The notes under the pieces were generated by a model. The model did not search any database, had not been told where the DNA came from, and saw nothing but the letters and a program-made list of their open reading frames with translations. From positions 22,811 through 86,810 of the forward strand of contig MELF01000046.1 of the NCBI GenBank assembly GCA_001767525.1: a stretch of 64,000 nucleotides of DNA. The letters run 5' to 3'. The position numbers and the translations under genes are program-made. Each line of letters opens with the position of its first letter. Position 1 is the first letter of the stretch. Positions 3,256 to 6,764 of this stretch are shown here, in pieces. Source of the stretch: Acidobacteria bacterium RIFCSPLOWO2_12_FULL_68_19 (GTDB lineage: Bacteria; Acidobacteriota; Vicinamibacteria; Vicinamibacterales; UBA2999).

Positions 3256-3507
3256 GTGGTCAGGTTCCTTCTCCTCACGATCCTGCTCGTTGTCGTCGCA
3301 CGCCTGTTCTGGCGATTGATGGACGCCGTGATGGCCGGCGCGCGCGGGGTTCCGGGCCCAGGCGGTCAGCGGCGCGAGCCCGTGAAGCTCGTTCGCGACC
3401 CGGTGTGCGGCACCTACGTGCCTCCGCGGTCGTCGCTCTCGCTGACCTCCGGCGGCAGCACGCATTACTTCTGTTCCGAGGCATGCAGGCAGAAGTTCAG
3501 GCGATGA
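3256..3507 (+). CDS. Small membrane protein with YHS/TRASH domain
   Basis: N-terminal TM helix; DPVCGTYV...YFCSEAC signature. Confidence 0.8.
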   Translation: MVRFLLLTILLVVVARLFWRLMDAVMAGARGVPGPGGQRREPVKLVRDPVCGTYVPPRSSLSLTSGGSTHYFCSEACRQKFRR

Positions 3508-4361
3508 CGAGAGTCGAGGAACAGATTCGCGCGGATATCGTCGAGGCTGGCCGGCGGCTCTACGCGCGCGCGTTGGTCGCCTCGAACGACGGCAACATCA
3601 CCGCGCGCCTCGACGACCGGCGGCTCCTCGCCACGCCCAAGAGCGTGTCGAAGGGGTTCATGACCCCCGACATGATGGTGATTGTCGACTACGACGGACA
3701 CAAGCTCGCGGGCGAGCGCGATCCGTCCACCGAGCTGCCGATGCACCTCGAAATCTACCGCAATCGGACCGACGTGAACGCGGTGGTGCACGCGCATCCG
3801 CCGATCGCAACCGGGTTCGCCGTTGCCGGCATTCCGCTGACCCGGGCCGTGCTGGCTGAAGTGATCACCACACTCGGGAGCATTCCCATTGCCGCCTACG
3901 GCACGCCGTCGACGAGCGAGCTTCCCGAAGCGGTCCGCAAGTACATCAAGGCGCACGACGGGATGCTGCTCGCCAACCACGGCGCCGTCACGTGCGGCAC
4001 GGACGTGCTCGGGGCGTACTACAAGATGGAGACGATCGAGCACTTCGCCAGGATCAGTCTGGTGGCGCGCCTGCTCGGGCGCGAGCACCTGATCTCGCGC
4101 GAGGAAGTCGAGCGCCTGCAGGGGCTGCGCGGCGTGTACGGCATTCCGGCTCCGGCGCCGCTCTGCGCCGATCCCGCCGATGCGGGCGGGGACCAGGTCG
4201 CCTGCCAGGCGCTCGAGGCGCCGGTGTCGCGGGATGGACGGCTGGTGCCCGATGTTCCCGCGCTCGATCGGGTGGAGTCGCGCCGGGACGGGGAAATTCG
4301 GCTAACATACGACGAACTGACGGCGCTGATCACAGAGGCGGTCAGAACCTTGAAGGACTGA
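3504..4361 (+). CDS. Class II aldolase/adducin family protein with C-terminal encapsulation-peptide-like helix
   Basis: NDGNITAR, PSTELPMH, VVHAHP, LLANHG (Zn ligands); Pro-rich linker then LTYDELTALITEAVRTL. Confidence 0.88.
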   Translation: MTRVEEQIRADIVEAGRRLYARALVASNDGNITARLDDRRLLATPKSVSKGFMTPDMMVIVDYDGHKLAGERDPSTELPMHLEIYRNRTDVNAVVHAHPPIATGFAVAGIPLTRAVLAEVITTLGSIPIAAYGTPSTSELPEAVRKYIKAHDGMLLANHGAVTCGTDVLGAYYKMETIEHFARISLVARLLGREHLISREEVERLQGLRGVYGIPAPAPLCADPADAGGDQVACQALEAPVSRDGRLVPDVPALDRVESRRDGEIRLTYDELTALITEAVRTLKD

Positions 4362-4431
4362 ACTCGCAAGCACCCCGCTCCCAAATTCCCAACTGCGTGT
4401 GGGCGTTGTGGAGTCGGGCGTTGAGAGTTGA
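4361..4431. repeat. Heptamer palindrome spacer
   Basis: aactcgcaag...ctcccaaattcccaac / gggcgttgtggagtcgggcgttgagagtt. Confidence 0.65.
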
Positions 4432-4443
4432 CAGGGAGACGAA

Positions 4444-4743
4444 ATGGGAGAGGCGCTGGGAATGGTCGAAACCAAGGGCCTGGTCGCCATGATCGAGGCG
4501 GCCGACGCGATGGTCAAGGCCGCGAAAGTGACGCTCGTCGGGTGGGAGAAGATCGGCGCCGGCTACGTGACGGCGATCGTTCGGGGCGACGTCGCCGCCG
4601 TCAAGGCGGCGACCGATGCTGGCGCCGCGGCGGCTCGGCGCGTGGGCGAGCTGGTGTCGGTCCACGTCATCCCGCGGCCGCACGCGAACCTCGAGGACGC
4701 GCTGCCCATCGGCAAGGCGACCGCCGGCGCCGCGAAGTCGTAG
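4444..4743 (+). CDS. BMC shell hexamer protein (BMC-H, EutM/PduA/CcmK-like)
   Basis: [44 protein letters not shown]. Confidence 0.96.
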
Positions 4744-4758
4744 CCGAGGACGGCCCCG

Positions 4759-5034
4759 ATGATTCTGGCCCGCATCGTCGGGACTGTTGTCGCTACGCGC
4801 AAGGACCCGCGCCTCGTCAGCCACAAGCTGCTGGTGGCGCGTCCGGTGGACCCTCACGGCAAGAACGACGGCAACTACCTGGTCGCCGTCGACACCGTTG
4901 ACGCCGGCGTCGGCGAGACGGTGCTGATCGTCAGCGGCAGCTCCGCCCGCATGGCCGCCGGCATGAAGGACTGTCCGGTCGATGCGGCCATCGTCGGCAT
5001 CATCGATGCCGTCGAGATAGCGTCGGGGGATTGA
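4759..5034 (+). CDS. BMC vertex pentamer protein (BMC-P, EutN/CcmL family) 1
   Basis: ARIVGTVVATRK..KLLV..VAVDTVDAGVGETVL..GSSAR..DAAIVGIID. Confidence 0.95.
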   Translation: MILARIVGTVVATRKDPRLVSHKLLVARPVDPHGKNDGNYLVAVDTVDAGVGETVLIVSGSSARMAAGMKDCPVDAAIVGIIDAVEIASGD

Positions 5035-5039
5035 TCGGC

Positions 5040-5318
5040 ATGCAGCTCGCGCGCGTCATCGGCGACGTGGTCATCACGCGAAAGGACGAGAACCTCACGG
5101 GCCTCAAGCTGCTCGTGCTGCAGCCGATCGCCGCCGACGGCACCGCCGTGGGCCGCACGCTGGTTGCGGTGGATGCCGCCGGCGCCGGGGCGGGCGAAAC
5201 CGTGTTCTTCGTCCGTGGGAAGGAAGCCAGCTTTCCGTGGTACCCGACCGAGGTCCCTGCCGACGCCGGCATCGTCGGGATTGTCGATCACTGGGATGTG
5301 GAGCCGCCGCGTACGTAG
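5040..5318 (+). CDS. BMC-P (EutN/CcmL family) 2
   Basis: ARVIGDVVITRK..VAVDAAGAGAGETV..GKEA..DAGIVGIVD. Confidence 0.93.
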   Translation: MQLARVIGDVVITRKDENLTGLKLLVLQPIAADGTAVGRTLVAVDAAGAGAGETVFFVRGKEASFPWYPTEVPADAGIVGIVDHWDVEPPRT

Positions 5319-5342
5319 CGGGAGCCGGTCGGACCGGATGAT

Positions 5343-5615
5343 ATGCAAATCGCGCGCGTCGTCGGCACCGTCGTCGCCACGCAGAAGCACCGCGCGTTCG
5401 AGGGCGCGAAGCTGCTGCTCGTCCAGCCGCTGACGCTCGACGACAAGCCGCGCGGCACGGCGCTGCTGGCCGTGGACACACTCGGGGCCGGCGTGCACGA
5501 GAAGGTGCTCGTCGTCATGGAAGGGCGCGCCGCGGGCGAGGCGCTCGGCCGACGACTGGCGCCGGTCGACGCGGCGGTCGTCGGCATTATCGATACCGTG
5601 GACGTGGTCGCATGA
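5343..5615 (+). CDS. BMC-P (EutN/CcmL family) 3
   Basis: ARVVGTVVATQK..LAVDTLGAGVHEKVL..EGRAA..DAAVVGIID. Confidence 0.93.
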   Translation: MQIARVVGTVVATQKHRAFEGAKLLLVQPLTLDDKPRGTALLAVDTLGAGVHEKVLVVMEGRAAGEALGRRLAPVDAAVVGIIDTVDVVA

Positions 5616-5842
5616 CCGACGACGAACTGCGAGCGCTCGTGCGCGCGGCCATCGCGCAGTACGCTGGTGCCGCCCCCGTCCAGCCCGAGGGCGGCCGTCC
5701 GCACGGCGTTCCCGTCCGCCTGCACCCGAGCCACGGTCGATTCACGAGGCTCCCCGCCGGCTCCGACGCGGACGGCCCCTGCCTCATCGAGCCTGCCATC
5801 ACGTGCTACCGCTGTGGCTACTGCCAGTCGTACGGGCACTAG
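5612..5842 (+). CDS. Small protein: N-terminal encapsulation-peptide-like helix plus C-terminal Cys4-His metal motif
   Basis: MTDDELRALVRAAIAQY ... CLIEPAITCYRCGYCQSYGH; ATGA overlap with BMC-P3. Confidence 0.75.
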   Translation: MTDDELRALVRAAIAQYAGAAPVQPEGGRPHGVPVRLHPSHGRFTRLPAGSDADGPCLIEPAITCYRCGYCQSYGH

Positions 5843-6764
5843 GCCGGCCGTCCTCCTCACCCGCAAGCTCCCGGCGTCCGTGATGGCGCGCCTCGAGGCC
5901 TCGTGCGAGGTGGAGCAGTGCGAGGCCGACGGCGCGTCGGCGCGCCGTGAGCTCCTGGCCTGCGTGGCGGGCAAACAGGCGCTCGTCTCGATGGTGACCG
6001 ACATGGTGGACCGCCCGGTGATCGAGGCGGGCGGCACGCTGCGGATCATCGCGAACGTCGCCGTCGGCTACAACAACGTCGACGTGGCGGCGGCGCGTGA
6101 GCGCGGCATCGTTGTCACCAACACGCCCGACGTGCTGACAGACGCGACCGCGGACTTCACGCTGGCCCTCGTGCTGGCCGTGACCCGCCGCCTGGGCGAA
6201 GGAGAGCGCATGCTGCGCCGGGGCGACTGGAAGGGCTGGGCCTTCGACCAGCTCCTCGGGGCCGAGCTGCGCGGCAAGCAGCTCGGTATCGTCGGCTTCG
6301 GGCGGATCGGCCGCGCCGTCGCCGCGCGGGCGCAGGCGTTCGGCATGACGATCGCCCATGCGTCTCGGTCCGATGCCGGCATGCCGCTCGATCGCCTGCT
6401 CGCCACCTCGGACGTGGTGTCGCTGCACGTCCCGCTGACGCCGGAGACGCGGCACCTCGTCGGGCAGCCCGAACTGGCGCGGATGAAGCGCACCGCGTAT
6501 CTCGTCAACACCACCCGCGGGCCGGTCGTCGACGAGGCGGCCCTCGCGTGGGCGCTGAAGAACCGGCTGATCGCGGGCGCCGCGCTCGACGTCTACGAGC
6601 GGGAGCCGGAGGTGCACCCGGATCTCCTCGCGCTCGAGAATGTCGTGCTCGCGCCGCACCTCGGCAGCGCCACCACTGAAACGCGGACGGCCATGGCGGA
6701 CCTCGCCGTCCGCAACGTCGTGGCGGTGCTCGGCGGCGACCCGCCCCTGACGCCGGTCGCGTGA
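5814..6764 (+). CDS. D-isomer-specific 2-hydroxyacid dehydrogenase (glyoxylate/hydroxypyruvate reductase-like)
   Basis: VAVGYNNVD, VTNTPDVL, GFGRIG, NTTRG, ALDVYEREP, PHLGSAT; GTG 5814 is the nearest start upstream of the conserved LLTRKLP strand. Confidence 0.88.
   Translation: MATASRTGTRPAVLLTRKLPASVMARLEASCEVEQCEADGASARRELLACVAGKQALVSMVTDMVDRPVIEAGGTLRIIANVAVGYNNVDVAAARERGIVVTNTPDVLTDATADFTLALVLAVTRRLGEGERMLRRGDWKGWAFDQLLGAELRGKQLGIVGFGRIGRAVAARAQAFGMTIAHASRSDAGMPLDRLLATSDVVSLHVPLTPETRHLVGQPELARMKRTAYLVNTTRGPVVDEAALAWALKNRLIAGAALDVYEREPEVHPDLLALENVVLAPHLGSATTETRTAMADLAVRNVVAVLGGDPPLTPVA

Follow-up and report, generated by a model that had tools for sequence, protein, structure and literature searches.

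A probable ACI-type microcompartment locus in a Vicinamibacterales genome, with a metabolosome core split between separate loci

We analysed a 64,000-nucleotide stretch of DNA (the window; positions 22,811 to 86,810 of contig MELF01000046.1) from Acidobacteria bacterium RIFCSPLOWO2_12_FULL_68_19. The window very probably (we put it at about 0.8) holds the main locus of a bacterial microcompartment (BMC) of the ACI type, a metabolosome with part of its core missing, in a member of the Vicinamibacterales (Acidobacteria subdivision 6), with the system split over three places in the genome. The window is part of contig 46 of an assembly of 4.21 Mb in 52 contigs that is rated 100% complete. The locus type has already been catalogued, so that the present locus is a further member of it, and its function is a predicted one. 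An earlier note on this DNA, made from the sequence alone, had pointed to a likeness to a catalogued acidobacterial BMC type; this was right, and the type is ACI, as presented in the catalogue's text (PMC8217296). Acidobacteria are major soil bacteria, and our literature searches on ACI function returned the catalogue, its preprint and unrelated papers. No paper testing or establishing a function was found among them, in keeping with the same note. The present analysis narrows the conserved core of the system to two units, marks the dehydrogenase of the locus as a lineage-specific addition, finds the usual coenzyme A (CoA)-recycling enzyme absent from the genome, and singles out a family of small Cys/His proteins as a candidate for metal binding or encapsulation.

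The earlier note had listed co-oriented genes for an aldolase, one hexameric shell protein (BMC-H), three pentameric ones (BMC-P), a small Cys-rich protein and a dehydrogenase, and Pfam matches, coordinates and strand bear the list out: all seven genes lie on the forward strand. The aldolase, a class II (FucA-like) enzyme of 285 residues (3504-4361; PF00596 Aldolase_II, E 9.7e-48), is followed by the BMC-H gene (4444-4743; PF00936, E 2.7e-30), whose product passes the EutM model NF012018 with 142.6 bits (cut-off 133). The BMC-P genes come next, at 4759-5034 (PF03319 EutN_CcmL, E 9.3e-33), 5040-5318 (PF03319, E 9.7e-27) and 5343-5615 (PF03319, E 3.8e-29). The open reading frame (ORF) of the second opens with a TTG at 5031, and the PF03319 match begins at residue 4 of that frame, placing the domain start at the ATG at 5040. 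The three are distinct paralogues, with pairwise identities of 44-49%, and are the only BMC-P genes of the whole genome. A conserved ORF for a 76-residue protein outside known families (5612-5842) and the dehydrogenase (5814..6764) complete the series. Packing is tight: the stop codon of an upstream YHS-domain gene and the aldolase start overlap by 4 nt (ATGA), as do the first and second BMC-P genes, and the third BMC-P gene and the small ORF. For comparison, the best 80 of 536 confirmed aldolase loci served as the set of close relatives; most are titled as Vicinamibacterales, Vicinamibacteria, Acidobacteria or Acidobacteriota metagenome-assembled genomes (MAGs), with a few other labels. Downstream genes were counted in the 61 of these with at least 3600 nt past the aldolase, the other 19 being excluded for short flanks, and BMC-H, the three BMC-P genes and the small ORF are present in 61/61.

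According to its text on this type, the catalogue of Sutter, Melnicki, Schulz, Woyke and Kerfeld (2021, Nat Commun 12:3809; PMC8217296) counts 125 ACI members, in Acidobacteria only and mainly in subdivisions 4 and 6. The components it gives are an aldolase with a C-terminal encapsulation peptide (EP), a hydroxyacid dehydrogenase, a BMC-P triplet, a BMC-H and proteins of unknown function, together with an aldehyde dehydrogenase (AldDH) that lies consistently on a satellite locus and resembles only that of the MIC3 type. The present system shares the acidobacterial host and the subdivision 6 order, the pfam00596 aldolase with a conserved terminal peptide, the pfam00389/02826 dehydrogenase in the locus, the BMC-P triplet with at least one BMC-H (three in the genome) and the AldDH on a satellite locus, here on contig 50. 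Thus, the locus matches every feature of that description that we compared, and none of those features differs. We found in the catalogue's ACI text no mention of a genome without PduL-type phosphotransacylase (PTAC), Pta and acetate kinase (AckA), of a third, solitary BMC-H, of an AldDH paired with its own BMC-H, or of a dehydrogenase unlinked in 8/8 distant loci, all of which we find here and describe below.

The aldolase consists of a catalytic domain (residues 11-185), an extension of about 100 residues with two conserved cysteines that is kept across 81 sequences, and a terminal peptide. Its last 23 residues (4290..4358, forward strand) are a predicted C-terminal encapsulation peptide, judged by conservation and amphipathy. 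This terminal helix follows a variable linker, shows column conservation of 70-99% in the 81 sequences and has a hydrophobic moment of 0.51 that only 10/2000 shuffles match. A similar helix motif ends all 19 distant aldolases compared. No NCBIfam model reaches its cut-off for the aldolase, the best scoring 128 bits against 250. The closest relatives of solved structure are 6btd (E 1.3e-24), the FucA entry 4c24 (E 1.3e-23) and 1fua (4.9e-16). The genome holds five further class II aldolase paralogues.

The second place of the system is on contig 50, where a 579-residue acetylating aldehyde dehydrogenase (7841-9580, reverse strand) passes TIGR02518 with 627.6 bits (cut-off 620.1) and has a second BMC-H (9605-9898, reverse strand) directly upstream. 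TIGR02518 matches occur in the genome on contigs 50, 21, 17 and 10 only, and the contig 50 gene is the sole one of its kind. Its product carries a C-terminal extension of about 110 residues (approximately 467-579) with two conserved modules; the extension has no match in Pfam, and none by sequence in the PDB, at E up to 10. The modules occur on no other protein of the genome, and in the protein collection searched all 32/32 matches are AldDHs, 31 of them carrying PF00171. In the order, 39/41 genomes (own genome included) have an AldDH orthologue that is at least 63% identical; the remaining two (G025 and G030 in our numbering, in which G marks genomes and L loci) have AldDH matches of 42-43% only, plus a different, tandem-domain shell gene. 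The BMC-H is directly upstream of the AldDH in 29/30 loci, counting the own genome and 29 relatives, the exception being L106. The third place is a solitary BMC-H on contig 19 (L007:9950-10264) with a 15-residue N-terminal extension. This protein has K-T-A-N for K-A-A-K/N and A-R-P-A for P-R-P-H, motifs which the catalogue's text gives as typical of 'basal' hexamers (PMC8217296), and its presumed pore loop reads D-A-G, against G-A-G in the other two BMC-H proteins. The genome thus has three BMC-domain genes, all single-domain, with the main-locus hexamer the only one on contig 46; across the order, 31/41 genomes have three such genes and 10/41 have two.

Aldolase relatives were found in 225/401 sampled Acidobacteriota genomes, a count that takes in one unpublished genome (G187). 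We hand-picked 20 distant aldolase loci across Acidobacteriota families (41-58% identity): eight keep the order aldolase, BMC-H and three BMC-P, three are complete PVM-like loci, four have a partial shell and five have no shell gene within 8 kb. All eight genomes with the aldolase-shell order also keep the BMC-H and AldDH pair (46-61% identity), either on a different contig or at a distance of 73 kb to 1.9 Mb from the aldolase locus, and the dehydrogenase is adjacent in 0/8. The conserved core, as far as gene arrangement tells, is therefore two units, one of the EP-bearing aldolase, BMC-H and three BMC-P, the other of a BMC-H and the extended AldDH. Gene content, protein families, split architecture and conservation are here direct observations.

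These results change the interpretation of the locus as a minimal, AldDH-independent shell with functionally different vertices, in which the aldol step is coupled directly to NAD(P)H-dependent reduction of a 2-oxo acid. That interpretation, offered in the earlier note, drew on the window itself: no AldDH, PduL, iron-containing alcohol dehydrogenase (Fe-ADH) or tandem-domain BMC protein is encoded there, and its statement that the window lacks AldDH, alcohol dehydrogenase (AlcDH), PduL/PTAC and BMC-T holds in Pfam, TIGR02518 and Fe-ADH searches. The divergence of the three BMC-P proteins, just 44-49% identical, would also suit vertices with different functions. However, the BMC-H-linked acetylating AldDH is found together with the aldolase-shell locus both within the order and in the phylum at large. 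A single hexamer is correct for the window and wrong for the genome with its three BMC-H genes, and three pentamers to one hexamer, thought odd, become 3:3 genome-wide, BMC-P triplets being known and recurrent in many BMC types according to the catalogue's text (PMC8217296). The dehydrogenase, on which the proposed reduction would depend, is the least conserved component. An EP-bearing set of AldDH and PTAC elsewhere in the genome had been named beforehand as the finding that would overturn this interpretation; half of such a set is present, and the picture of one hexamer, no AldDH and a minimal shell fails. The search of the genome for such a satellite set gave the AldDH with its conserved extension and no PTAC of either kind. 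We consider the AldDH-independent shell very improbable, and the interpretation as a whole partly supported.

Compared with the canonical metabolosome core of PDU- and EUT-like systems, the genome has the acylating pfam00171 AldDH, on the satellite locus, and lacks a phosphotransacylase and an alcohol dehydrogenase (searched as Fe-ADH) that is linked to the locus or bears an EP. PduL (PF06130), Pta (PF01515) and acetate kinase (PF00871) have no match in the whole genome; control searches matched 2/14 reference genomes for PduL and 10/14 for Pta. BMC-T is likewise absent from the genome, all three BMC-domain matches being single-domain. The single Fe-ADH is on contig 33, without a terminal extension and with no shell gene in the 3.5-kb stretch around it; other alcohol dehydrogenase families were not searched. 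In PVM loci the genes for AldDH, PTAC and acetate kinase lie with those of the shell, whereas here the AldDH is on a satellite locus and the other two are absent from the genome. What the locus shares with PVM (Planctomycetes, Verrucomicrobia; fucose and rhamnose), as the catalogue's text presents that type, is a class II aldolase as aldehyde source, a BMC-P triplet and an acylating AldDH. Three PVM-like Acidobacteriota loci (L125, L126, L128) have an aldolase 53-54% identical to ours with a C-terminal tail, an adjoining BMC-H and three BMC-P. One of them, L125, adds a DeoR regulator, an RpiB-like protein, a PduS-like flavoprotein, a tandem-domain BMC-T, PduL, an in-locus AldDH and acetate kinase, and thus a complete core, unlike this genome. 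The MIC grouping of incomplete cores in the same catalogue shares with our system an AldDH-based compartment without part of the AldDH/PTAC/AlcDH core, but the catalogue's text names ACI as a type of its own, and ACI has the aldolase. The locus is neither PVM nor a complete metabolosome core.

The dehydrogenase (5814..6764, forward strand) is a D-2-hydroxyacid dehydrogenase of the glyoxylate/hydroxypyruvate reductase type (PF02826, 1.3e-55; PF00389, 9.7e-30). Its best NCBIfam model is glyoxylate reductase, at 324.8 bits below the cut-off of 455, and its closest solved relatives are the glyoxylate reductases 5aov, 6bii and 2dbq (E ~5e-79). No canonical start codon is present where most relatives begin (M-K-P-x-V-L-L-T-R), and the only in-frame start just upstream is the GTG at 5814, a probable start that gives an overlap of 29 nt with the small ORF. 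The enzyme is one of six genomic paralogues, the other five being 39-45% identical to it. The earlier note had made its case hinge partly on whether the dehydrogenase stays with the shell genes in relatives. Among close relatives it does, lying downstream of them in 58/61 loci; among distant ones it does not, and the housekeeping flanks of the same 80 loci are equally well kept (GlmM 65/66, PdxJ 66/66, Nth 56/58). Since these flanks are as syntenic as the dehydrogenase itself, its linkage to the shell genes is weak evidence of a functional link. In the eight distant aldolase-shell loci the genes after the third pentamer are unrelated, with RuvAB, PurSQL, FolD/CoaE, flagellin, a Y-family polymerase, a TPR protein and a hydrolase among them and no family match in one of the eight. 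The dehydrogenase was added within the lineage of the Vicinamibacterales.

Several observations weigh against our reading of the locus as the main part of an ACI-type metabolosome. Membership was judged from the catalogue's text description rather than from its type hidden Markov models (HMMs). Encapsulation is, for every protein, something that we infer, and module 1 of the AldDH extension is not notably amphipathic (moment 0.23, matched by 1203/2000 shuffles). Most of the adverse points concern the dehydrogenase. It has no N- or C-terminal extension; it is not found within 7 kb in 3/61 close loci (L011, L082, L084), in two of which (L082 and L084) Nth directly follows the small ORF; it has shifted by 1.4-2.7 kb in L014, L044 and L083; and it is adjacent to none of the eight distant aldolase-shell loci. 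In 6/8 of those genomes the best match to it is at most 44% identical, which is the level of a paralogue, since its own five paralogues score 39-45%. After the nucleotide-binding motif it has S-R-S and not an acidic residue, which we take to fit NADPH as well as NADH; a preference for NADPH would oppose a role in NAD+ recycling. The same facts, together with the equally conserved GlmM, PdxJ and Nth flanks, favour a dehydrogenase that works outside the compartment as a cytosolic glyoxylate/hydroxypyruvate reductase and is kept after the shell genes by inherited gene order within the Vicinamibacterales. We give this alternative a little under even odds. It has to be set against the catalogue's naming of a hydroxyacid dehydrogenase as a component of ACI loci (PMC8217296, in its text on the type), the overlap of the only canonical in-frame start with the small ORF, the short gap between the matches to the small ORF and the dehydrogenase in relatives (median 48.5 nt), the shared strand without a terminator-like site predicted between the two genes, and the presence of six paralogues, which makes a specialised copy plausible. 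On balance, the odds that the dehydrogenase belongs to the compartment pathway are about even, and its encapsulation is doubtful.

The 76-residue protein has no match in Pfam or NCBIfam. Members of its family begin with a helix, followed by a low-complexity linker that varies between them, and end in a tail with H-x-S-H, C-x7-C-x2-C-x2-C and G-H at the C-terminal end, the Cys/His motif of the tail being kept in 64/67 sequences. A variant tail, C-x7-C-x5-C, occurs in the distant loci L141, which is part of the alignment, and L130, which was found independently (E 3e-4). Altogether 278 homologues were found; the 120 listed are all called 'hypothetical', and none of them carries a Pfam domain. 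When 1.84 billion proteins were searched with a profile, 314 cluster representatives were returned; the best 150 of these are all 60-135 residues long, so there are no fusions among the best 150. AlphaFold2 with the family alignment predicted a helix at residues 3-18 (pLDDT, the local confidence score, 93/83), a linker below 50 and a compact tail at 73-87 with little secondary structure. Foldseek of this model against the PDB gave 0 matches, and the ESM Atlas returned unnamed acidobacterial clusters only. We infer a metal-binding protein (Zn or Fe-S), tethered by its helix, that may serve as cargo or adaptor. Prediction of a complex between it and the dehydrogenase (score 0.01, mark 0.32) counts neither for nor against binding.

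Inspection by eye shows T-x-x-E-L-x-A-L-(I/V)-x-x-A-(V/I) both in the tail of the aldolase and at the start of the small protein, which raised the idea that the two share an encapsulation peptide. A joint 16-position HMM retrieves only these two proteins among 35,486 genomic ORFs, in a test that is circular; HMMs built from the aldolase tail alone or the small protein alone do not retrieve the other protein, and the hydrophobic moment of the small-protein helix is unremarkable (matched by 705/2000 shuffles). A common peptide is not established, because the single-protein models fail, the joint test is circular and the helix moment is ordinary, and we set the idea aside as unsupported. The DNA encoding the two stretches (4298-4327 and 5608-5637) is 73% identical over 30 nt, a likeness that may be due to chance in a genome of 70% G+C. 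In one relative (L075:8700-9185), the third BMC-P and the small protein share a single open frame without a stop between them, which may reflect a true fusion or a fault in the assembly.

In the pathway that we propose, the C-terminal peptide would bring the aldolase into the shell, where the enzyme would split a ketose-1-phosphate into dihydroxyacetone phosphate (DHAP) and a short reactive aldehyde. The shell would hold this aldehyde while the AldDH, with NAD+ and CoA, converted it to an acyl-CoA. As the genome has neither a phosphotransacylase nor acetate kinase, the acyl-CoA would have to leave the shell, or CoA be recycled by an unrecognised route other than via the acyl-phosphate. The dehydrogenase would be a lineage-specific, co-transcribed accessory, perhaps regenerating NAD+ in place of the usual alcohol dehydrogenase.

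Two classes of substrate come into question. The catalogue's text proposes carbohydrate degradation for ACI by analogy with PVM and GRM5 (PMC8217296), which would here mean a PVM-like 6-deoxyhexose route from L-fuculose-1-phosphate or L-rhamnulose-1-phosphate to DHAP and lactaldehyde, and on to lactyl-CoA. L-Fuculose-phosphate aldolases (4c24, 1fua) are indeed among the solved relatives of our aldolase, and aldolases 53-54% identical to it belong, in other Acidobacteriota, to complete PVM-like loci that also encode PduL, AldDH and acetate kinase (as in L125). But this 100%-complete genome has no L-fucose isomerase (PF02952) and no RhaA (PF06134), other isomerase types not having been searched; no FucA model reaches its cut-off for the aldolase; and the AldDH scores as an acetaldehyde dehydrogenase equivalog. 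The deoxyhexose route is therefore a tentative candidate, at well under even odds.

The other class is a pentose-derived ketose-1-phosphate from the breakdown of nucleosides or 5'-deoxynucleosides, with 5-deoxyribulose-1-phosphate, methylthioribulose-1-phosphate or ribulose-1-phosphate (Ru1P) giving DHAP and acetaldehyde, methylthioacetaldehyde or glycolaldehyde. The top solved relative of the aldolase, 6btd, is DrdA, described in PMC6079011 as a 5-deoxyribulose-1-phosphate aldolase yielding DHAP and acetaldehyde, and the AldDH passes the cut-off for acetylating acetaldehyde dehydrogenases. A single MtnA-type isomerase (TIGR00512, 445 bits, cut-off 279) is encoded in the genome, clustered with purine and pyrimidine nucleoside phosphorylases, a NupC-type nucleoside transporter and cytidine deaminase next to TsaD (contig 10, ~121000-129700, reverse strand; L157:8094-16653). 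FucA-type Ru1P aldolases that give glycolaldehyde are described in nucleoside catabolism (PMC9700705), and the catalogue's text ties other triplet-bearing types (SPU, HO) to nucleic-acid breakdown (PMC8217296). However, 6btd is ahead of FucA by one order of magnitude in E-value only, the Ru1P aldolase model gives the aldolase 107 bits against a cut-off of 300, and the isomerase cluster is on a contig other than the aldolase's. Because the five other class II aldolase paralogues could equally partner the isomerase, nucleoside breakdown stays a lead, and we regard it as unlikely on present evidence.

A bolder version of the proposed ACI metabolosome would combine several of these elements: a compartment that works without phosphotransacylase and acetate kinase, that in Vicinamibacterales uses a dehydrogenase of the glyoxylate/hydroxypyruvate reductase type and a translationally coupled, metal-binding mini-protein (N-terminal helix and Cys3-4/His tail) for redox recycling or cargo tethering, and that handles C2 aldehydes (acetaldehyde or glycolaldehyde) from the pentose-derived ketose-1-phosphates of nucleoside or 5'-deoxynucleoside breakdown and not lactaldehyde from fucose or rhamnose. 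If true, this would make ACI a metabolosome with a cofactor economy and a feedstock unlike the textbook ones; that all of its parts hold together is improbable. The remaining interest of the system lies in the missing phosphotransacylase, the role of the dehydrogenase, the small Cys/His protein and two proteins encoded upstream of the aldolase.

These upstream proteins are a TPR protein with an N-terminal hydrophobic segment (2635..3240, forward strand; Pfam TPR families) and a second, small one that likewise starts with a hydrophobic segment and has a Cys-rich YHS domain (3256..3507, forward strand; PF04945, E 3.5e-09). Among the 72 close loci whose upstream flank is 1000 nt or longer, a TPR homologue precedes the aldolase in 72/72 and the YHS gene is present in 66/72. 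The TPR homologue also lies upstream in the distant loci L123, L124, L130 and L141, where the GlmM/PdxJ synteny is gone, and L141 has the YHS gene as well. The TPR gene is thus a conserved upstream neighbour and possibly an operon member, and a functional link to the compartment may follow. Both proteins, presumably membrane-anchored, are of interest as they stay upstream of the aldolase past the range of the backbone synteny.

A scan of the locus for promoters and terminators gave no signal above shuffled sequence, and an Rfam scan of window positions 1-12000 (E up to 1) gave only sub-threshold plant microRNA (miRNA) matches on an intergenic repeat. That repeat, at 8858-9060 between the PPIase and DUF72 genes, is a long imperfect inverted repeat of 9-nt units that reaches 36 bits against plant miRNA families with a gathering score of 100, and we read the matches as a hairpin artefact. 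Related repeats of about 7 nt (CCCAAGG / TTGGGAG-like) form imperfect hairpins at 917-1014, 1765-1854, 2568-2635 and 4400-4429, in the gaps between GlmM and PdxJ, PdxJ and a hydrolase, the hydrolase and the TPR gene, and the aldolase and BMC-H. These short-period intergenic repeats look like a family of REP-like elements.

Around the third BMC-H (contig 19, 40134-42101; L007:9950-11917), the shell gene is followed by a convergent MerR-family regulator and a ThiO-type glycine oxidase (TIGR02352, 285 bits, cut-off 250.8). In relatives, the oxidase is near this BMC-H in 14/16 loci and the MerR gene in 11/16, though the outer-membrane flanks likewise keep their gene order. Another ThiO-type gene is found next to the aldolase, BMC-H and BMC-P locus of the distant L127, an arrangement seen in 1/20 distant loci only. 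The product of glycine oxidase is glyoxylate, which is of the class of substrates likely for the main-locus dehydrogenase.

In five MAG loci (L012, L042, L048, L055, L087), shell or dehydrogenase genes are split into two to three tblastn pieces or, in L042, a stop codon interrupts the small ORF; the probable cause is frameshift errors in the assemblies. In the window, a glutamate racemase gene (6780-7577, reverse strand) lies convergent with the dehydrogenase. It occupies that position in 1/58 close loci with enough flank, and appears to have been inserted recently between the dehydrogenase and Nth genes.

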